Sequence record: OP870146.1
From: Escherichia phage vB_Eco_F27
DNA: 64,000 nucleotides
Direction: 5' to 3' (one strand)
Shown here one piece after another: positions 2,616 to 46,518 of the stretch; position 1 is the first letter of the stretch; every line of letters begins with the position of its first letter. The translations under genes were made by a program, and so were the position numbers. The notes below the pieces were generated by a model. The model did not search any database, was not told where the DNA came from, and was given only the letters and a program-made list of their open reading frames with translations.

Positions 2616-2841
2616 CTCGGTCCCATGATTTGGCCATTAATTCGGACATAAATTCTTCAATGCGCGTTTCTTTAGATGGACTTTCACTATTAGAGACCGC
2701 AAGTTTGTAATCTGCAATAGGACAGAACATATCAAGGTCCATATTAAGGTCGTCTTTGATTTTTTCTTCTGACACATCTTTATCGTATGTGTACAGATAA
2801 CTATCACATGATTCTGATTTAATGTAAATTGCTATACTCAT
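2605..2841 (-). CDS. hypothetical protein (78 aa from ATG 2839-2841; alternative ATG at 2854-2856)
   Basis: ORF track; ATGA overlap with stop of upstream gene; AGGAA SD before the 2841 ATG. Confidence 0.4.
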   Translation of the reverse strand: MSIAIYIKSESCDSYLYTYDKDVSEEKIKDDLNMDLDMFCPIADYKLAVSNSESPSKETRIEEFMSELMAKSWDRDDE

Positions 2842-3329
2842 CTCAAATTCCTGCATTCGGTAATAAAACGTTCAACTTCATTATTCTTGGCCTTTATCTT
2901 GTCTTTACGTTCCTGTAAACTACTTTTAACAAGATTAATAATGATGCCTACAGTACCTCCACCAATAATACCACCAATAATACTTACAATAGTAGATGCT
3001 AATAAGATAGCGATAATATCTAGTACAGCAAAGGCACTTACTTTAGTACTAAAAAACCATACCGACGGTACAAATATAATCCATCCTGTTATCCATTGGC
3101 ACTTATTGAAAAACTTTTCAAGCTCAGCTTGAGTTGTTCGTATTACTTCATCGATAGGTTGATATCCATTAATGTATCTGTTCACAATAATACCTGCTGG
3201 CTGGTCGATTTTAAATTCTTGGCAAATATGTTTCACTAAGTAGGATGGACATCCTGTCCAATCTACCGAATAATACGAAATACCTTCGTTGCCATCGTCT
3301 ATATTAGACCAATATGTTTTGTTAATCAT
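2838..3329 (-). CDS. small membrane protein, C-terminal ERFITECR tail (ENFIKECR-tail family), 163 aa
   Basis: ORF track trimmed to ATG 3327-3329; hydrophobic segment AVLDIIAILLASTIVSIIGGIIGGGTVGIIINLV; conserved C-terminal tail. Confidence 0.5.
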   Translation of the reverse strand: MINKTYWSNIDDGNEGISYYSVDWTGCPSYLVKHICQEFKIDQPAGIIVNRYINGYQPIDEVIRTTQAELEKFFNKCQWITGWIIFVPSVWFFSTKVSAFAVLDIIAILLASTIVSIIGGIIGGGTVGIIINLVKSSLQERKDKIKAKNNEVERFITECRNLR

Positions 3330-4015
3330 TACCAACCTTCCATAGGGAATTCCAGATAAACTTGGGCATTGACACGAATTTCATTGGTAATCTTTTTAAC
3401 TCGGTCTGTATTACGAGATACACGTCCGAACCAACGCCATCCATTACTAATTGCACGAGAACCAGTGTGCCATGTTTGCCAATCAAACTGAAGAAGAGTA
3501 CGATCTGGAGCTTCCCATTTCTCTAGTTCACCTTTTTCAATTTTTTCGAGGACTTCTTTGTGCCACTGGCGATAGATAAGTTCGCCATCAGGAATCTGAC
3601 TGAACTCTGCAGTTCCTGTTGCAAAATGAGTAGGACACACATCAGCGTTAACAAGACCAAGAATATGTTCAGACAAATAGCGAGGATTGTCATAATCAGG
3701 TTGTCCTGCAGTAATAAAATGTTGTCCTGTTGGAATATCTGGGCGTGGTACGTCATCATGGTGATATCCAGGAATAGCAGGGTACCAACCAGGCATCAAC
3801 ATGTGGACTCGTGAATCAAATACTACATCCGAGTCTTTCCAATCGTCAGGGAGATTTTGAATAAAGCTACGAGTAATTGGGCCGCCATTATCAAAAGCAA
3901 AATTCAAATCGCAGTTAAAGAACATAGGCTCGTTTTTAATCTGGTCGTTTTTAATCGCATGAGCAAAACCACCTACTGCACGAGCTTGACTATTAAACAC
4001 TTTAGAACTATTCAT
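3329..4015 (-). CDS. hypothetical protein, 228 aa
   Basis: ORF track; ATG 4013-4015 with GAGGAAAA SD; no motif recognised. Confidence 0.5.
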   Translation of the reverse strand: MNSSKVFNSQARAVGGFAHAIKNDQIKNEPMFFNCDLNFAFDNGGPITRSFIQNLPDDWKDSDVVFDSRVHMLMPGWYPAIPGYHHDDVPRPDIPTGQHFITAGQPDYDNPRYLSEHILGLVNADVCPTHFATGTAEFSQIPDGELIYRQWHKEVLEKIEKGELEKWEAPDRTLLQFDWQTWHTGSRAISNGWRWFGRVSRNTDRVKKITNEIRVNAQVYLEFPMEGW

Positions 4016-4016
4016 A

Positions 4017-4322
4017 TTATTTTCCTCGACATTCTTTAATGAAATTTTCTAGATTGGTAGATTCAATAGCTTTTTTACGAGCTTCAACATGTTCTTCTTC
4101 AGACAATTTACATTTATAATTGACCCAGACATTATGGTCGAAACTAGTCGTGGCATATAATAACAAAGCTCCGACGAATAATAAAAACGGTGATAAGAAT
4201 ATACAACCAGGCACACCATCCATACTGTAAGCCTTTTGTAATACTGCAACAGAAAGAGTTGCGTAAAAAAGTGATGCAAATATTGTTAAAAGACCAATTC
4301 GGTTGGTTTCGCCTAATTTCAT
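4017..4322 (-). CDS. small membrane protein, C-terminal ENFIKECRGK tail, 101 aa
   Basis: ORF track; ATG 4320-4322 with GAGGAG SD; early promoter immediately upstream; hydrophobic segments. Confidence 0.55.
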   Translation of the reverse strand: MKLGETNRIGLLTIFASLFYATLSVAVLQKAYSMDGVPGCIFLSPFLLFVGALLLYATTSFDHNVWVNYKCKLSEEEHVEARKKAIESTNLENFIKECRGK

Positions 4323-4350
4323 AATATTCTCCTCATGTTTTAATAGGACT

Positions 4351-4379
4351 ACTATAACATAGTCCTATAATTGTGTAAA
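4351..4379 (-). promoter_or_regulatory. early (sigma70-type) promoter: -35 TTTACA, 17-bp spacer, -10 TATAGT
   Basis: Minus-strand sense GTTTACAcaattATAGGACTAtgTTATAGTAGTCCTAT; 9-bp inverted repeat around the -10. Confidence 0.55.
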
Positions 4380-4392
4380 CAGTTTTGCGAAA

Positions 4393-5349
4393 TTATTTGA
4401 AAGGTTTTACCATATGGAAATTTTGTTTGAAACGTTTGACGTAATCGTCATGTCCTAAGCTTTGGTACATACTTACTACTTTGCTGTAGTTTTCCCAGGC
4501 GTATTCACGGAACCAACCGGAGGTGATGCTTGTGCAGACTTTTTCTAATGCCATCATGAAACTGGCTTCAGGGTTAATTTTAAAGTCATTAGGAATCTGA
4601 GAACGTTCTAATGCTAGTACACATGATTCTTCATATACACCGGCCAATTTGACCATTTCTGGTAACGATTCGAACTTCTCGCGTGAGGTCATGACTTCAG
4701 AACCGTCTTTCATATAAAATGTATAAGCCGGACGGTCTGTTAGTGCAATGGCTTCATGAATAGTATCATGGTCATATGTATAGATGTCATCTTTAAAGAA
4801 CGCACTTTTAGAAGTGTCAAGAACCGGGTGAGCATAGTTCAAGGTTTCTTTCTGGCGTTTCAGCATAATTTCAGTAAGTTCATCGTTCAGTGTAACACCT
4901 TTACCACGAAGATACTGAATATGGTTCATAGTCTTTAAAAAGAATGGATTATTTTTCTTGAAACGATGAGACATCTTAATTGCAAGACATATCTCAGGAG
5001 TTGCCCAGTAAAACCCGTTCAAACGGTCTTTAGTCAAATTTTTCTTGGCGTATTTTAAAAGGTCATAAGAAGACGTGAAATCTTCAGGAGTGAGTTCACC
5101 GACTAATTCACGGACATTAGTGATTGCCGGAACAATATATGCTTCAAAATGAGTTTCGCGTCCATTATGGAAGCATTTGAAAACTTGGACATCAGGGTTA
5201 TCTTGGTGAACATATACACCCATCATTTGATTTTTGAATGCATTCCAAGAACCTTGGTCCGCAATAAAGTCCCAATCGCTATTTTTGATAGCGCTAGAAT
5301 CAATAAGACCATGATAGTGAAGTGCACGAGAACCAATAACTAACATCAT
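4393..5349 (-). CDS. hypothetical early protein, 318 aa; possible nucleotidyltransferase-like N-terminus
   Basis: ORF track; ATG-ATG start with GAGGAAA SD; N-terminal LVIGSRALHYHGLIDSSAIKNSDWDF resembles a GS...DxD motif (weak). Confidence 0.5.
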   Translation of the reverse strand: MMLVIGSRALHYHGLIDSSAIKNSDWDFIADQGSWNAFKNQMMGVYVHQDNPDVQVFKCFHNGRETHFEAYIVPAITNVRELVGELTPEDFTSSYDLLKYAKKNLTKDRLNGFYWATPEICLAIKMSHRFKKNNPFFLKTMNHIQYLRGKGVTLNDELTEIMLKRQKETLNYAHPVLDTSKSAFFKDDIYTYDHDTIHEAIALTDRPAYTFYMKDGSEVMTSREKFESLPEMVKLAGVYEESCVLALERSQIPNDFKINPEASFMMALEKVCTSITSGWFREYAWENYSKVVSMYQSLGHDDYVKRFKQNFHMVKPFK

Positions 5350-5377: not shown

Positions 5378-5629
5378 TTAAATTTCACGACATGCGATAT
5401 TATATTCGTCCCAGAGGTCATCGTGTGAAGCCTCTACCAATGGAACGATTGTACCGTTTATGTCTTCATTATAAGGGCAAATTGTACAGTGCGCATCTTC
5501 GAATCGGATGCCTTTGTGTTCAGATTTTTTATAACGCATATCGAATATCTTTGCAAACTTTTCACGAGTAATGGTTTTAGCAACCACTTTGGTTCCGATA
5601 CTTTCGTAATAAATCATTGTGGACTCCAT
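5378..5629 (-). CDS. hypothetical protein, 83 aa
   Basis: ORF track; ATG 5627-5629; early promoter upstream. Confidence 0.45.
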   Translation of the reverse strand: MESTMIYYESIGTKVVAKTITREKFAKIFDMRYKKSEHKGIRFEDAHCTICPYNEDINGTIVPLVEASHDDLWDEYNIACREI

Positions 5630-5645
5630 TTAATTTGATAGGACT

Positions 5646-5674
5646 ACTATAACATAGCCCTATCTTGTTGTAAA
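5646..5674 (-). promoter_or_regulatory. early promoter (-35 TTTACA / -10 TATAGT)
   Basis: Same architecture and spacing as 4351-4379. Confidence 0.5.
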
Positions 5675-5679
5675 CTGTT

Positions 5680-5877
5680 TTAGCAAGAATAACTAGATGA
5701 TACCCAGCCTTGAACAGTGATACTATTATGGGATAATGAGATCGCGTCCTGGAGATTCAGACCTGCGTTATCTTCAATCCATAATGTAACTTCTTCGCGT
5801 TCTTCTGTTGCAATTTGGAACAGGTTTTCCAGAGCAGCTACTGCCGTACGTACAGCACAATCTAATTCACGAGACAT
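5680..5877 (-). CDS. small protein, tandem paralog A (C-terminal QGWVSSSYSC), 65 aa
   Basis: ATG 5875-5877 with AAGGAAAC SD overlapping the stop of the upstream paralog. Confidence 0.55.
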   Translation of the reverse strand: MSRELDCAVRTAVAALENLFQIATEEREEVTLWIEDNAGLNLQDAISLSHNSITVQGWVSSSYSC

Positions 5878-8716: not shown

Positions 8717-8745
8717 TTTGTTTCTCCTCTTGATTTGATGTGATT

Positions 8746-8774
8746 ACTATAACATAAACGTACTTAGATGTAAA
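8746..8774 (-). promoter_or_regulatory. early promoter (-35 TTTACA / -10 TATAGT)
   Basis: ATTTACAtctaagtacgtttatgtTATAGT on the minus strand. Confidence 0.5.
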
Positions 8775-8928
8775 TTATTTCAACGTCACCTTTAGCGGCT
8801 TTATAACCTTCAGCCCAAGATACAACAGAGTTTTTATCCGAGGATTCAAATTCAGGCATTGGACTTTCACCAATATTCACACAGTATGTTTCTTCATTTT
8901 CATCGAACCAAATAATTAAAGTAGTCAT
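8764..8928 (-). CDS. small hypothetical protein, 54 aa (MTTLIIWFDENEETYCVNIGESPMPEFESSDKNSVVSWAEGYKAAKGDVEIIYI)
   Basis: Not in ORF track (under 60 aa); ATG 8926-8928 preceded by GAGGAG SD within a promoter-leader cassette identical to the one at 45127-45173. Confidence 0.4.
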   Translation of the reverse strand: MTTLIIWFDENEETYCVNIGESPMPEFESSDKNSVVSWAEGYKAAKGDVEIIYI

Positions 8929-8958
8929 TTTGTTTACTCCTCTGTAGTTGATAAGTCT

Positions 8959-8987
8959 ATAGTATCACCATCCTTGGTGCTTGTACA
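8959..8987 (-). promoter_or_regulatory. early promoter (-35 TGTACA / -10 TACTAT)
   Basis: 17-bp spacing; leader carries GAGGAG SD. Confidence 0.45.
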
Positions 8988-8996
8988 TCATTATTT

Positions 8997-9302
8997 TTAA
9001 TTTTTCCAACTTAACAACTTGTAGTGTCCTTCATTCATACGTGGTTTATCCCAAGAAATACTAATATATGATTCGCTGTCAATAGAAGTCGCCGGGTTTT
9101 TCTCTACCGTAAGACCTTCACTTTCCAGCCATTCAATAGTATTTGCGCATAAATCAGAAGAACACCTAATCGGAAACCGGCAAGATTTTTCACCTTTAGC
9201 TGCAGTGTTATACATCTTTTCTAAAATACGCTTTTGCACGTTTTTAAAAATAGTTTCAGCAGATTCTTCAGATTTTTTATTCAGTTCAGTGTAAAGACTC
9301 AT
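8997..9302 (-). CDS. hypothetical protein, 101 aa
   Basis: ORF track; ATG 9300-9302; leader cataatattctcctcatgtttt is identical to that of CDS 4017-4322. Confidence 0.5.
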   Translation of the reverse strand: MSLYTELNKKSEESAETIFKNVQKRILEKMYNTAAKGEKSCRFPIRCSSDLCANTIEWLESEGLTVEKNPATSIDSESYISISWDKPRMNEGHYKLLSWKN

Positions 9303-9330
9303 AATATTCTCCTCATGTTTTGATAGGTCT

Positions 9331-9358
9331 ATAGTAACACATCTAGGGAAGAAGTAAA
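9331..9358 (-). promoter_or_regulatory. early promoter (-35 TTTACT / -10 TACTAT)
   Basis: Same cassette family. Confidence 0.45.
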
Positions 9359-11776: not shown

Positions 11777-11983
11777 TTACTCACCTTTTGCAATTTTATC
11801 CATAACGATAGCGATTAAGCCGATTAGAAATGCTACTACCAATGAGATAGAGTTTTCAGTTGTTGTCAGTAGTCCACAAATGAATCCTACAAACATCGAA
11901 AAACTAAAAGCCATTGAAGCAATTACTACAGCAACATTACGAATCAGTTCAGCGCGTTTCATTTTATTTCTCCATTTACTCAT
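11777..11983 (-). CDS. small membrane protein, 68 aa
   Basis: ATG 11981-11983; early promoter upstream; two hydrophobic segments. Confidence 0.45.
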   Translation of the reverse strand: MSKWRNKMKRAELIRNVAVVIASMAFSFSMFVGFICGLLTTTENSISLVVAFLIGLIAIVMDKIAKGE

Positions 11984-11999
11984 TTGTTTTGATAGGACT

Positions 12000-12028
12000 A
12001 CTATAACATATCCCTATAGGCTTGTATA
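12000..12028 (-). promoter_or_regulatory. early promoter (-35 TATACA / -10 TATAGT)
   Basis: Cassette family, 17-bp spacer. Confidence 0.45.
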
Positions 12029-12031
12029 CCT

Positions 12032-12295
12032 TTATTTCAAATATATTGCGTATTTTTTATAGCCACCAGGCTCGTGTCGAAGACCTTTATCATTCGCAAA
12101 ACGTTGAATGTTATTGAACTGATTTTCATCAAGTTCGGATGTGTCAAATATGAAAAAGTTTCGTTTGTTGCCAAGCGTGATATGCGGAGTTAAGTCAATG
12201 TTATACAAATTAAGAATATCAGCAATAACCTGATTGACCGCTTTGTTAATTTTCACACCAGACGATTCTGAGATGAATTCGTTGAAAGTTTTCAT
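12032..12295 (-). CDS. internal head protein-like (N-terminus MKTFNEFISE), 87 aa
   Basis: ORF track trimmed to ATG 12293-12295; CTS-like N-terminus. Confidence 0.45.
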   Translation of the reverse strand: MKTFNEFISESSGVKINKAVNQVIADILNLYNIDLTPHITLGNKRNFFIFDTSELDENQFNNIQRFANDKGLRHEPGGYKKYAIYLK

Positions 12296-12327
12296 TTTAG
12301 GTTCCATTTGGTTGTTTTGATAGGACT

Positions 12328-12356
12328 ACTATAACATAATCCTATCGTGTTGTAAA
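12328..12356 (-). promoter_or_regulatory. early promoter (-35 TTTACA / -10 TATAGT)
   Basis: ATTTACAacacgataggattatgtTATAGT. Confidence 0.5.
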
Positions 12357-12668
12357 TTATTTTATGCCTTTAGAAGAAATGGTGTTTTGGCGTTTGGTCC
12401 CTGTTTGTGAAAAATCGTGGTTATCGATTTGGTCGACTCGCATAACACCAAATGCAGATTTAATTTTAGCCTTTGAACCTTTTTTGATACTAATTATCAT
12501 ATAAGTATCATTTTTCTTATATTCGAAATTTGTTACTTCAACGCCTTGATTAGAAATTGACTTAATAATAGCATTAGCGTATTCATCATCTAACGGACCG
12601 GTGGTGTTAATAATAAAATTTTTATCGGCTTTAGTAGCTTCAGCGATAAACTCTTGATAAGTTTTCAT
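12357..12668 (-). CDS. internal head protein (N-terminus MKTYQEFIAE, identical to the T4 capsid targeting sequence), in the ipI map position, 103 aa
   Basis: ORF track trimmed to ATG 12666-12668; adjacent to 57B as ipI is in T4. Confidence 0.6.
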   Translation of the reverse strand: MKTYQEFIAEATKADKNFIINTTGPLDDEYANAIIKSISNQGVEVTNFEYKKNDTYMIISIKKGSKAKIKSAFGVMRVDQIDNHDFSQTGTKRQNTISSKGIK

Positions 12669-12704
12669 TTGTTTTTTCCGTTTGGTTTGAGATTTGATAG
12701 GATG

Positions 12705-12733
12705 ATAGTAACACACCATCATCCTTATGTAAA
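12705..12733 (-). promoter_or_regulatory. early promoter (-35 TTTACA / -10 TACTAT)
   Basis: Arms AGGATGAT / ATCATCCT keep the inverted repeat around the -10 through different bases. Confidence 0.5.
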
Positions 12734-12747
12734 CTGTTTTGTGAAAA

Positions 12748-13433
<686 letters not shown>

Positions 13434-24448: not shown

Positions 24449-25445
24449 TTCAAGTGTTATCTATCGTGCAATAGTTACATCAAAATTTAGAACAGAAAAA
24501 ATGCTGAATTTTTATAATTCAGTTGGGGATGGAGATGATAAGAACTCCATTTATATTACGTTTGGACGTTCAGAGCCTTGGGCGTCAAATGAAAATGAGG
24601 TGGGCTTCGCCCCACCTTATCCTACAGATTCTGTTCTTGGTGTTACTGATATGTGGACCCATATGATGGGTACCGTTAAAGTTTTACCTTCAATGTTAGA
24701 TTCTGTTATTCCTAGACGTGATTGGGGAGATGTGCGATATCCAGACCCTTACACGTTTAGAATTAATGATATAGTCGCATGTAATACTGCTCCGTACAAC
24801 GCGACAGAAGTTGGAGCCGGTTGGTTAATTTACCGTTGTTTAGATGTCCCTGACGTAGGGCTCTGTTCAATAGAATCTTTAGATAATAAAGATGAATGTC
24901 TTAAATTGGGTGGTAAATGGACTCCGTCTGTTCGTTCTATGTCTCCTCCTGAAGGCAGAGGCGATGCTAATGGGGTTATCGAAACCGGTGATGGATATAT
25001 TTGGGAATATCTTTACGAGATTCCTGCCGATGTGTCAATTAACCGTTGCACTAATGAATATCTTGTAGTTCCGTGGCCGGAAGAAATTAAAGAAGACCCC
25101 ACCCGTTGGGGATATGAAAATAACTTAACTTGGCAACAAGACGACTACGGCTTGATTTACCGTGTTAAAGCTAATACGATGCGGTTTAAAGCATATTTTG
25201 ATTCTGTTTATTTCCCTGAGGCAGCTTTGCCTGGTAACAAGGGTTTTAGACAGATATCAATTATCGCAAACCCGTTAGAAGCTAAGAAAAATCCAAATGA
25301 CCCTAATGTTAAAGCAGAAAAGGATTATTATGACCCTAGAGACCTGCAACGTCATTCTGGTGAAATGATTTATATGGAAAACCGACCACCTGTTATTATG
25401 GCAATGGACCAAACAGAAGAAATTAACATTTTGTTTATGTTTTAA
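24441..25445 (+). CDS. 8: gp8 baseplate wedge subunit, 334 aa
   Basis: Length and order as T4. Confidence 0.9.
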   Translation: MNDSSVIYRAIVTSKFRTEKMLNFYNSVGDGDDKNSIYITFGRSEPWASNENEVGFAPPYPTDSVLGVTDMWTHMMGTVKVLPSMLDSVIPRRDWGDVRYPDPYTFRINDIVACNTAPYNATEVGAGWLIYRCLDVPDVGLCSIESLDNKDECLKLGGKWTPSVRSMSPPEGRGDANGVIETGDGYIWEYLYEIPADVSINRCTNEYLVVPWPEEIKEDPTRWGYENNLTWQQDDYGLIYRVKANTMRFKAYFDSVYFPEAALPGNKGFRQISIIANPLEAKKNPNDPNVKAEKDYYDPRDLQRHSGEMIYMENRPPVIMAMDQTEEINILFMF

Positions 25446-25448
25446 TTA

Positions 25449-25472
25449 GGGAGCCTTCGGGCTCCCATTTTT
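25449..25472 (+). terminator. rho-independent terminator GGGAGCC-UUCG-GGCUCCC then UUUUU
   Basis: Directly after the gene 8 stop. Confidence 0.7.
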
Positions 25473-25477
25473 GTATC

Positions 25478-25485
25478 TATAAATA
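25478..25485 (+). promoter_or_regulatory. late promoter TATAAATA for gene 9
   Basis: Exact consensus. Confidence 0.6.
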
Positions 25486-43242: not shown

Positions 43243-44811
43243 ATGACTACTATCAAAACTAAAGCTCAGCTCGTAGACAAATGGAAAGAACTGCTGGAAG
43301 GTGAAGGCCTGCCGGAAATCGCTAATAGCAAGCAGGCTATTATCGCTAAAATCTTCGAAAACCAGGAAAAAGATTTCGAAGTATCCCCTGAATATAAAGA
43401 CGAGAAAATCGCTCAGGCATTTGGTTCTTTCTTGACCGAAGCTGAAATTGGTGGTGACCATGGTTATAATGCTCAGAACATCGCAGCAGGTCAAACCTCT
43501 GGTGCAGTAACCCAAATTGGGCCGGCAGTTATGGGTATGGTTCGTCGTGCTATTCCTAATCTGATCGCTTTTGATATTTGTGGTGTTCAGCCTATGAACA
43601 GCCCGACCGGTCAGGTATTTGCTCTCCGTGCAGTATATGGTAAAGACCCTATCGCTGCTGGCGCTAAAGAAGCTTTCCATCCGATGTATGCTCCAGATGC
43701 GATGTTCTCTGGTCAGGGTGCTGCTAAGAAATTCCCAGCTCTGGCTGCTGACACTACTACTGTTGTAGGTGATATCTATACTCACTTCTTCCAAGAAACT
43801 GGTACTGTATATCTGCAAGCTTCTGCTGTCGTAACACTTGATTCTGGTGCAACTGACGCATCTAAATTAGATGCCGAAGTTAAGAAACAAATGGAAGCTG
43901 GTGCACTGGTAGAAATCGCTGAAGGTATGGCTACTTCTATCGCTGAACTCCAGGAAGGTTTCAACGGTTCTACCGATAACCCATGGAATGAAATGGGCTT
44001 CCGTATCGATAAACAAGTTATCGAAGCTAAATCTCGCCAGCTGAAAGCTGCTTACTCTATCGAATTAGCACAAGACCTCCGTGCAGTACACGGTATGGAT
44101 GCTGATGCTGAACTGAGCGGTATTCTGGCTACAGAAATTATGCTAGAAATCAACCGTGAAGTTGTTGATTGGATTAACTACTCTGCACAGGTTGGTAAAT
44201 CTGGTATGACCCTGACTCCGGGTTCTAAAGCTGGTGTATTTGACTTCCAGGACCCGATTGATATCCGTGGTGCTCGTTGGGCCGGTGAAAGCTTTAAATC
44301 TCTGTTGTTCCAGATTGATAAAGAAGCAGTTGAAATTGCTCGTCAAACCGGTCGTGGTGAAGGTAACTTCATTATCGCTTCCCGTAACGTAGTTAACGTA
44401 CTGGCTTCAGTTGATACTGGTATTTCTTACGCTGCACAGGGCCTGGCTTCTGGTTTTAATACCGACACTACTAAGTCTGTATTTGCCGGTGTACTTGGTG
44501 GTAAATACCGCGTATACATCGACCAGTATGCTAAACAGGATTACTTCACCGTTGGTTACAAAGGCGCTAACGAAATGGATGCAGGTATTTACTATGCTCC
44601 TTACGTTGCACTTACCCCACTGCGTGGTTCCGATCCTAAGAACTTCCAGCCGGTAATGGGCTTTAAAACTCGTTACGGTATCGGTGTTAACCCGTTTGCT
44701 GAAAGTTCCCTGCAGGCTCCAGGTGCTCGCATCCAGTCCGGTATGCCGTCTATCCTGAACAGCCTTGGTAAGAACGCTTACTTCCGCCGTGTATATGTAA
44801 AAGGCATCTAA
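43243..44811 (+). CDS. 23: gp23 major capsid protein, 522 aa
   Basis: Length and order; high-expression codon usage. Confidence 0.93.
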   Translation: MTTIKTKAQLVDKWKELLEGEGLPEIANSKQAIIAKIFENQEKDFEVSPEYKDEKIAQAFGSFLTEAEIGGDHGYNAQNIAAGQTSGAVTQIGPAVMGMVRRAIPNLIAFDICGVQPMNSPTGQVFALRAVYGKDPIAAGAKEAFHPMYAPDAMFSGQGAAKKFPALAADTTTVVGDIYTHFFQETGTVYLQASAVVTLDSGATDASKLDAEVKKQMEAGALVEIAEGMATSIAELQEGFNGSTDNPWNEMGFRIDKQVIEAKSRQLKAAYSIELAQDLRAVHGMDADAELSGILATEIMLEINREVVDWINYSAQVGKSGMTLTPGSKAGVFDFQDPIDIRGARWAGESFKSLLFQIDKEAVEIARQTGRGEGNFIIASRNVVNVLASVDTGISYAAQGLASGFNTDTTKSVFAGVLGGKYRVYIDQYAKQDYFTVGYKGANEMDAGIYYAPYVALTPLRGSDPKNFQPVMGFKTRYGIGVNPFAESSLQAPGARIQSGMPSILNSLGKNAYFRRVYVKGI

Positions 44812-44835
44812 TCTTAATTGATTAAATCTTATTTT

Positions 44836-44859
44836 GGGAGACTTCGGTCTCCCATTTTT
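44836..44859 (+). terminator. rho-independent terminator GGGAGAC-UUCG-GUCUCCC then AUUUUU, after gene 23
   Basis: Perfect 7-bp stem with UUCG tetraloop. Confidence 0.7.
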
Positions 44860-44863
44860 GGTT

Positions 44864-45133
44864 TTATTTCTGTGCAATTTCGATGTAAGTTTTCAAAATA
44901 TTTTGCCAATTAGGCATACCTTCTTGGACATATGCCGGAGAACCATCTTTGTTTTTGAATGATGCAAGTTTATCAGTGGCCCAATAACCTTTAGCTCGAG
45001 CTTCAGAATCAACTTTCATCCATACTTTGTTGAAGGCATTACCATTAACTTTTGCACCATATTTTTCTACTAACTTAACCGCTTCAGCTTCCAGAACTTT
45101 TAAAGTATCTCGTAAGAAACGTGCTTTAGTCAT
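44864..45133 (-). CDS. hypothetical protein, 89 aa, antisense insert between genes 23 and 24 (T4 segD position)
   Basis: ATG 45131-45133; driven by an early promoter-leader cassette identical over 47 nt to the one at 8922-8968. Confidence 0.5.
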   Translation of the reverse strand: MTKARFLRDTLKVLEAEAVKLVEKYGAKVNGNAFNKVWMKVDSEARAKGYWATDKLASFKNKDGSPAYVQEGMPNWQNILKTYIEIAQK

Positions 45134-45163
45134 TTTGTTTACTCCTCTGTAGTTGATAAGTCT

Positions 45164-45192
45164 ATAGTATCACATACCAAATACGTTGTAAA
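45164..45192 (-). promoter_or_regulatory. early promoter (-35 TTTACA / -10 TACTAT)
   Basis: 17-bp spacer; GAGGAG SD in leader. Confidence 0.5.
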
Positions 45193-45199
45193 CAATCTT

Positions 45200-45207
45200 T
45201 ATAAATA
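45200..45207 (+). promoter_or_regulatory. late promoter TATAAATA for gene 24
   Basis: Exact consensus 27 nt upstream of ATG. Confidence 0.6.
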
Positions 45208-45234: not shown

Positions 45235-46518
45235 ATGAGTAAAATCCAAAAATTATTGCGTGAATCTACAACGTCTACTAGCAACTCAATCGGTCGCCCA
45301 AATCTCGTTGCTTTGACTCGCGCTACGACTAAATTAATATATTCTGACATTGTAGCAACACAAAGAACTAATCAACCTGTTGCTGCTTTTTATGGTATCA
45401 AATATCTTAACCCAGACAACGAATTAACATTTAAAACTGGTGCTACTTATGCAGGCGAAGCTGGATATGTAGACCGAGAAAAAATTACCGAACTCACAGA
45501 AGAATCAAAAGTCACATTAAATAAAGGCGATTTTTTCAAATATAATAATATCGTCTATAAAGTGTTAGAAGATGCACCATTTGCAGATATTCAAGAAAGT
45601 GATCTAGAATTAGCTCTTCAGATTGCGGTCGTTCATTTAAAGGTACGGTTATTTTCGGATGCAGCGGTAACAAGCAAATTTGAAAGCTCTGGTAGCGAAA
45701 TTTCTGATGCAAGATTCCAGATTAATAAATGGCAAACTTCAGTCAAATCTCGTAAACTTAAAACCGGCCTCACGGTTGAATTAGCGCAAGATTTGGAAGC
45801 AAATGGATTTGATGCCCCTAACTTCTTAGAAGATTTGCTTGCTACTGAAATGGCTGATGAAATTAATAAAGATATTCTTCAGTCTTTAATTACTGTATCG
45901 AAACGTTATAAAGTTACTGGAATTACTGACACTGGATTTATTGACTTGAGCTATGCGTCTGCTCCAGAAGCAGGCCGTTCGTTATACCGAATGGTATGTG
46001 AAATGGTTTCGCATATCCAAAAAGAGTCAACTTATACTGCAACGTTTTGCGTAGCTTCAGCTCGTGCAGCTGCTATTCTTGCTGCTTCTGGTTGGTTAAA
46101 ACATAAGCCAGAAGATGACAAGTATCTTTCACAAAATGCTTATGGATTCTTGGCAAATGGATTACCTCTTTACTGCGATACCAACAGTCCGTTAGATTAT
46201 GTTATTGTGGGTGTTGTAGAAAATATCGGTGAAAAAGAAATTGTAGGGTCCATCTTTTATGCTCCATACACTGAAGGAGTAGATTTAGATGACCCGGAAC
46301 ATGTTGGTGCTTTTAAAGTTGTAGTTGATCCAGAAAGCTTGCAACCGTCTATCGGATTATTGGTTAGATATGCTTTATCAGCAAATCCTTACACAGTAGC
46401 AAAAGACGAAAAAGAAGCGAGAATAATTGATGGCGGGGACATGGATAAAATGGCAGGACGTTCAGACTTGTCTGTTTTACTCGGTGTTAAATTGCCTAAA
46501 ATTATTATAGATGAATAA
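45235..46518 (+). CDS. 24: gp24 head vertex protein, 427 aa
   Basis: Same length as T4 gp24; gp23-like fold expected. Confidence 0.9.
   Translation: MSKIQKLLRESTTSTSNSIGRPNLVALTRATTKLIYSDIVATQRTNQPVAAFYGIKYLNPDNELTFKTGATYAGEAGYVDREKITELTEESKVTLNKGDFFKYNNIVYKVLEDAPFADIQESDLELALQIAVVHLKVRLFSDAAVTSKFESSGSEISDARFQINKWQTSVKSRKLKTGLTVELAQDLEANGFDAPNFLEDLLATEMADEINKDILQSLITVSKRYKVTGITDTGFIDLSYASAPEAGRSLYRMVCEMVSHIQKESTYTATFCVASARAAAILAASGWLKHKPEDDKYLSQNAYGFLANGLPLYCDTNSPLDYVIVGVVENIGEKEIVGSIFYAPYTEGVDLDDPEHVGAFKVVVDPESLQPSIGLLVRYALSANPYTVAKDEKEARIIDGGDMDKMAGRSDLSVLLGVKLPKIIIDE

Follow-up and report, generated by a model that had tools for sequence, protein, structure and literature searches.

Introduction

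T-even phages encode small early accessory proteins that bind host factors, for example IPI*, Arn, Dmd and Acb2. In T4, the gap between the capsid genes 23 and 24 holds segD, the gene of a 223-aa GIY-YIG homing endonuclease. A review of 2010 stated that no segD-specific promoter was identifiable and that its transcript levels were probably vanishingly low (PMC2988022), whereas time-resolved omics of 2022 classed segD as early-RNA/middle-protein (PMC9697503, supplementary files 4-6) and detected the SegD protein from the earliest post-infection samples (PMC9697503). The T4/PST early promoter consensus is TTTACW-N17-TAYWAT (PMC4122927), and T4-type phages contain mobile regulatory cassettes known as PeSLs (Arbiol et al., 2010, PMC2839356; Comeau et al., 2014, PMC4122927), such regulatory cassettes being implicated in module shuffling (PMC2839356, PMC4122927).

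Here we analysed a window of 64,000 nucleotides from Escherichia phage vB_Eco_F27 (OP870146.1), in which an 89-aa ORF lies on the minus strand between genes 23 and 24. The window derives from a T4-type, RB69-like phage that belongs to Mosigvirus, and the 701 bases around the ORF are 99.4-99.7% identical to PhAPEC2, ST0, APCEc01 and about 100 further records. RB69ORF188c, JS98 orf173 and VR7ORF190c all match the window ORF in family, slot, strand and promoter arrangement. An initial annotation, made from the sequence of the window, had described the ORF as an early gene inserted in place of segD at a recurrent insertion hotspot with different cargo in this phage.

Results

The ORF and its neighbours

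The ORF list and the sequence confirm that the ORF is flanked by the gene 23 terminator on one side and by the late promoter of gene 24 on the other (Table 1); it stands antisense in the interval that separates two late transcription units. The protein matches the phrog_6003 profile over residues 1-89 (E = 2.1e-45), a family of unknown function that was matched by all 16 aligned homologues, and PhAPEC2_170 is annotated as similar to RB69ORF188c. The ORF is an already annotated hypothetical T-even ORFan in a known plastic gap. Neither an Rfam family within the 23-24 slot nor a paralogue of the ORF within the window was detected.

Table 1. Features of the 23-24 region of the window, with their coordinates
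Feature	Position	Strand	Basis or remark
89-aa ORF	44864..45133	-	ATG start; RB69ORF188c homologue, phrog_6003 member
Gene 23 (major capsid protein), delimits the slot upstream	43243..44811	+	522-aa ORF; gp23 annotation in 99.4%-identical PhAPEC2
Gene 23 intrinsic terminator, GGGAGAC-TTCG-GTCTCCC + T-run	44835..44864	+	8-bp stem, TTCG loop
Gene 24 (capsid vertex protein), delimits the slot downstream	45235..46518	+	ORF and annotation
Shine-Dalgarno sequence (SD) GAGGAG, 8 nt before the ATG	45142..45147	-	Read from the sequence
Gene 24 late promoter motif TATAAATA	45200..45207	+	Sequence; gap of 6 nt to the -35 of the early promoter, which is divergent
Early-type sigma-70 promoter G-TTTACA, 17 nt, TG-a-TACTAT	45164..45193	-	Promoter scan; -35 45192..45187, -10 45169..45164
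47-nt segment (-10, 5'UTR, SD, ATGACT)	45127..45173		100% identical to 8922-8968

Terminators with a UUCG tetraloop are the usual type for T-even late genes. The T-run of the gene 23 terminator abuts the stop codon of the antisense ORF, and an equivalent of its hairpin is kept in T4, LF82-7, JS98 and VR7. Two terminators of the window, at 25431-25480 and 44818-44867, are 78% identical across 50 nt (GGGAGxCTTCGGxCTCCC plus T-runs).

All homologues keep the start M-[TNK]-K..F and a length of 84-93 aa, and since the N-terminus is conserved in all of them, the ATG assignment is right; the SD, a strong one in the window, is conserved among them as well. By the Nei-Gojobori method, dN/dS was 0.10-0.14 for pairs with unsaturated dS, with dN 0.037 and dS 0.294 between the ORFs of JS98 and LF82-7. 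A ratio near 0.1 argues for a real, selected gene, and judged by this substitution pattern the ORF is a genuine protein-coding gene under purifying selection. In phage mogra (L028, MN850579; 301-569) a frameshift divides the ORF into two annotated pieces of 38 and 51 aa, which would be either a natural pseudogene or a sequencing error.

Predicted fold and candidate function

An AlphaFold2 model built from 14 sequences (pLDDT 89, pTM 0.76) predicts a helix at residues 3-25, a helix at 31-48, a beta-hairpin at 56-70 and a helix at 76-88. The family is basic (pI about 9.6), and a G-N-x-x-N motif at the start of helix 2 is invariant across the homologues. Scans of the ORF and its family with Pfam, NCBIfam and PADLOC returned nothing above threshold; DUF4859, at 17.9 bits against a cutoff of 22.6 and matched by just two of the 16 members, was rejected. 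The best match of a sequence-profile search of the PDB had E = 0.026, the proteins returned being unrelated. No Foldseek match in the PDB had an E value below 0.49, winged-helix domains being among the highest-ranking of these non-significant matches, and a structure search of BFVD returned one family member and nothing else.

An exhaustive HMM search of 1.84 billion representative proteins produced nine matches, among which P0021 and P0023 are the only true distant relatives. P0022 and P0024, giant Ig-like proteins with Big_2-type repeats, were rejected as repeat-inflated (2-12 bits per repeat) and as all-beta against the helical model, and P0020 was set aside as the probable product of a chimeric contig. 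The contigs of P0021 and P0023 belong to enterobacterial phages that are not T4-like, and both genes stand in accessory positions, one among small same-strand genes that include a T7 0.6-like gene and the other just after a GpJ-type tail-tip gene. The family is hence small, phage-restricted, horizontally mobile and confined to accessory positions.

The protein is small, basic, early, dispensable, fast-diverging, purified by selection and horizontally exchanged, and it carries an invariant polar loop; this profile is best matched by a binding protein. We therefore put forward tentatively, at somewhat less than an even chance, that its target is a macromolecule of the host or of a rival phage, with counter-defence, host take-over or nucleic-acid binding as the possible roles. 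It resembles IPI*, Arn, Dmd and Acb2 in size class, early expression, dispensability, patchy distribution and fast divergence; however, no sequence or structural similarity to these four was detected, and the likeness is one of functional analogy only.

Distribution and allele classes

A tblastn search found the family in 240 phage records, half of them (120) at 80% identity or more and the other 120 below 60%. The window ORF is 99-100% identical to many Mosigvirus records and 30-38% identical to the JS98 and VR7 versions, and as a typical type A allele it is set apart from the RB69ORF188c family by nothing substantial. Divergent copies occupy the 23-24 gap on the matching strand in Dhakavirus (JS98 orf173), in Gaprivervirus (VR7ORF190c) and in phage 04086, and the metagenomic T4-like contigs L021, L023 and L025 hold a homologue in the identical slot and strand, so that the slot homologues diverge from about 70% to about 30% identity. 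Since slot and orientation are shared by no fewer than three genera, namely Mosigvirus, Dhakavirus and Gaprivervirus, as well as by metagenomic relatives, the ORF is an old resident of the slot rather than a recent insertion. It is absent from T2 and most Tequatrovirus, in which the gap is an empty 83 nt, and this absence, together with the frameshifted copy of mogra, indicates that the ORF is dispensable.

The homologues can be divided into type A, comprising the window ORF and relatives at 61-71% identity, and type B, comprising the JS98 and VR7 versions at 30-37% identity to the window. LF82-7 is 99.8% identical to the window in gp23 and 98.8% in gp24, yet its ORF is of type B with 31.5% identity, and L021 and L025 have a JS98-like gp24 (about 69%) but a type A ORF (61-70%). 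By these identities, the family falls into two deeply diverged allele classes that are discordant with the capsid-gene backbone. Gene 24 itself is tandemly duplicated in JS98 (L002), VR7 (L003), L021, L023 and CGG4-1 (L027), and single in the window, T4 and L025.

In LF82-7 (L006, PV660450; 1985-3030, compare window 44784-45147) a Mosigvirus backbone carries a SegD-like endonuclease gene and a JS98-type ORF allele. Its gene 23 is almost identical to that of the window save for the last 28 nt, which hold nine substitutions, all synonymous; at the other junction, identity to the window resumes inside the SD of the ORF, and the sequence between the junctions matches JS98-type phages. Homing with co-conversion of flanking markers is expected to leave short conversion tracts. 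From its sequence, the LF82-7 segment looks like such a short, homing-associated conversion tract, which would have brought the endonuclease and the type B allele together; nuclease genes at exchange boundaries have been described (PMC10448857). Near the 3' end of the gene 23 sequence, a codon variant (TTTAGA versus TTCCGC) was considered as a mark of SegD carriers or a hint at the target and was rejected: T2 and VR25 have TTTAGA without the endonuclease, and IME341 has the endonuclease with TTCCGT.

A further-reaching reading can be built on these data, namely that this uncharacterised small fold serves early in infection as an effector of counter-defence or host takeover, that unrelated enterobacterial phages trade it, that it is maintained as two ancient specificity classes, A and B, and that in T4-type phages homing of the neighbouring SegD-family gene drives the exchange of one class for the other. 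The LF82-7 tract, which reaches from the final 28 nt of gene 23 as far as the SD of the ORF, fits the homing-driven replacement. As a whole, however, we regard the reading as unlikely.

SegD-family genes and the plastic gap

T4 does carry segD in the 23-24 gap, as had been claimed, and there too the gene is antisense. In Tequatrovirus, 53 records contain an antisense gene with at least 95% identity to T4 SegD, located in the gap in those checked, and a SegD-family gene lies antisense in the 23-24 gap of the Gelderlandvirus CGG4-1. In Klebsiella phage Matisse (Slopekvirus, L026; 1801-2439) the gene 23 terminator is followed by a sense-strand GIY-YIG gene that is SegD-like, with about 40% identity to T4 SegD; the gap can therefore accept members of the SegD family in both orientations.

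The ORF and a SegD homologue can also occur together. LF82-7 has a SegD homologue, with 57% identity to the T4 protein, that stands 3 nt downstream of the type B ORF, with one promoter for both, and such a pair is likewise present in phage 04086 and, by coordinates, in AV109 and IME341. The ORF is unrelated to SegD and can adjoin a SegD-family endonuclease gene in one early transcription unit. In the 04086 record (L004, OR842557), the intact 223-aa SegD-like ORF (2771-3442) is left unannotated, and the major head protein is annotated in truncated form although a full 519-aa gp23 ORF exists (3502-5061).

The slot was accordingly found empty (T2), with segD, with an ORF of type A or B, with the ORF plus a segD-like gene, or with a sense-strand segD-like gene, and the presence of SegD-family genes in several settings marks the gap as plastic. 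The hotspot proposed by the initial annotation holds in so far as the contents of the slot do vary among T4-type phages; the recurrent mobile cargo, however, is the endonuclease, and the ORF is a long-standing resident. In other words, segD is a sporadic selfish element and the ORF is conserved across genera. The window ORF and T4 segD have in common the gap, the antisense orientation and the gene 23 terminator as boundary, as well as a TTTACA-17-TAnnAT site equally far from the gene 24 late promoter, but differ in their products, a 223-aa nuclease in T4 and 89 aa without a nuclease motif in the window.

That the ORF is recent foreign cargo, inserted in a hotspot where it takes the place that segD has in T4, would agree with the differing cargo of the slot among phages, and also with the relationship to T4, which is nearer to the window (gp23 94.6%, gp24 95.1%) than JS98 is and yet lacks the ORF. 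In addition, the -10, UTR and SD are an exact 47-nt copy of a segment elsewhere in the genome, similar to the cassettes implicated in module shuffling. Against this, homologues down to 30% identity hold the same slot and strand in several genera, and the ORF and a SegD homologue coexist, findings that do not support an insertion in place of segD; moreover, the -35 and the coding sequence lie outside the duplication. T4 retains the early/late promoter pair without the ORF, and T2 has neither the ORF nor the early promoter. Because T4 keeps the promoter pair, loss or replacement in Tequatrovirus fits better than a gain in Mosigvirus, a polarity that we infer rather than prove. A recent insertion is therefore improbable, and an early gene long resident in the slot is preferred.

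The duplicated cassette

The ORF had been described as driven by a duplicated cassette. The exact 47-nt copy is real, but it covers the -10, UTR, SD and ATGACT only; it leaves out the -35 and the coding sequences, which differ between the copies. The copy at 8922-8968 heads a 54-aa ORF at 8764..8928 (-), and a related copy is present at 9294-9340, with 30 nt common to the JS98 slot promoter; three copies of the motif TACTATAGAC(C/T)TATCAA are present in the window, where 0.02 would be expected. The module of the 54-aa ORF (window 8764-8996 with its upstream region) is an indel, present in some Mosigvirus and missing from others. RB3 and other Tequatrovirus have a homologue with about 86% identity but another UTR, and the exact 47-nt identity therefore reflects conversion inside the Mosigvirus lineage.

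When compared with the PeSLs, the slot is similar in that its early promoter fits TTTACW-N17-TAYWAT, in that near-identical copies are found at several loci (three in the window, and the 30 nt shared with the JS98 slot), and in that the copies stand at indel or replacement boundaries between close relatives. However, the slot promoter (45140-45195, minus strand) forms no significant stem-loop (DNA-fold MFE -1.4 kcal/mol, z = +0.99), whereas a member of repeat family D1 at 5630-5685 has a 10-bp stem (z = -2.15), and the repeated unit of the slot consists of -10, UTR, SD and ATG, not of a terminator plus promoter. As the stem-loop is missing, the slot cassette is PeSL-like in behaviour and not a canonical PeSL. 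Family D1 itself comprises six 65-nt copies on the early-gene strand of the window (4332-4396, 5627-5691, 8727-8791, 11981-12045, 12309-12373 and 12686-12750), each with GTTTACA and a 10-bp inverted repeat enclosing the -10 (TAGGACTA...TAGTCCTA); these repeats are PeSL-like promoter stem-loops.

The early-type promoter

The promoter scan of the slot region yielded two sites against a shuffle mean of 2.5, which in this AT-rich stretch is not above chance, and the call consequently rests on positional conservation, fit to the consensus and the early RNA of T4 segD. TTTACA-17-TAnnAT occurs at the matching position in LF82-7, JS98 and VR7 and upstream of T4 segD, and in T4, JS98, VR7 and LF82-7 the early promoter is also back-to-back with the late TATAAATA. 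The slot promoter itself, TTTACA-17-TACTAT, conforms to the consensus. In T4 (L005, MT984581; 2782-2754, minus strand), TTTACA-17-TATTAT with a TG stands directly upstream of segD and, with 10 of 12 matches plus the TG, is the best match in that region. The early-type promoter of its own that had been attributed to the ORF is supported on these grounds, and early transcription of the window ORF, predicted from promoter match and conservation together with the RNA class of T4 segD, is a well-supported inference. Literature searches with the locus tags and protein accessions found no transcript or protein report for the ORF in any Mosigvirus, and matches to 'ORF188c' concerned only ORFs of other phages.

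The same geometry could be taken to mean that the function resides in RNA or DNA, either as an antisense ('anti-late') RNA against gene 23 or as occlusion of the gene 24 late promoter at the early stage of infection, the ORF being incidental. The gene 23 hairpin also forms when read on the minus strand but without a U-tract, which makes read-through antisense to gene 23 probable; only 6 nt separate the early -35 from the late TATAAATA, and the promoter geometry persists in T4 before a different gene. On the other hand, the dN/dS near 0.1, the conserved SD and start codon and the confident fold indicate that the protein itself is selected, a bidirectional terminator in VR7 would block the read-through, and T2-type phages manage without the promoter. 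A function exerted through RNA or promoter occlusion, rather than through the product of an early accessory gene, is thus a secondary and improbable reading.

Virion protein or endonuclease remnant

Position between genes 23 and 24, small size and basic charge would also suit a capsid-associated or internal virion protein, and three of the 16 members weakly match phrog_8765, 'internal virion protein', with a best E of 0.0015. This match is, however, limited to residues 52-83, and the ORF is antisense with an early-type promoter only. The PhAPEC2 record notes gp21, gp22, gp23 and gp24 as structural virion proteins and not PhAPEC2_170, and where a gp21-type cleavage motif, which we take to be L-x-E, would call for E, the N-terminus of type B has D. 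A virion protein is hence very improbable.

A degenerate remnant of SegD or of another homing endonuclease is effectively refuted, since the shared slot and strand with T4 segD and a 17-residue BLASTP match to T4 SegD (E = 0.022 for a single pairwise comparison) are outweighed by an hhalign probability of 1.1%, by the absence of a GIY-YIG or HNH domain from the ORF and its family in the Pfam scan (as the initial annotation had stated for the ORF), by strong purifying selection at a conserved length, by the intact SegD homologue beside the ORF in LF82-7 and 04086, and by a predicted helical bundle with hairpin instead of the GIY-YIG alpha/beta fold.

Discussion

Based on these findings, we propose, with a probability of about 0.55, that the ORF, a member of the RB69ORF188c / JS98 orf173 / VR7ORF190c family, is a free-standing early accessory gene that is non-essential for T4-type phages. 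Host RNA polymerase would transcribe the ORF in the first minutes of infection, after which the early promoter would be shut off and the abutting gene 24 late promoter would take over; part of the ORF transcript probably continues antisense to gene 23. The product would be a small basic protein of three helices and a beta-hairpin with an invariant N-G-N-x-x-N loop, and most likely its task early in infection would be to bind a macromolecule of the host or of a competitor, whether for counter-defence, for host take-over or as a nucleic-acid-binding protein.

The ORF itself carries little weight, being one more conserved T-even ORFan that is hypothetical in more than 200 genomes. Nevertheless, the combination of a confident, relative-less fold, purifying selection and two backbone-hopping allele classes is a pattern typical of proteins in host-phage or phage-phage conflict, and reasonably recommends the gene for knock-out or defence-panel screening. 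The comparison also corrects a T4-centred picture, in that SegD-family endonucleases have repeatedly invaded the 23-24 gap, which is an early-gene slot of long standing. Possibly worth more than the ORF are three side results: the promoter-like site of T4 segD, the finding that the ORF and SegD-like genes can coexist, and the LF82-7 tract. With the first of these, a conserved promoter-like site is exposed before T4 segD, for which the review of 2010 (PMC2988022) reported none and the omics of 2022 (PMC9697503) show early RNA.
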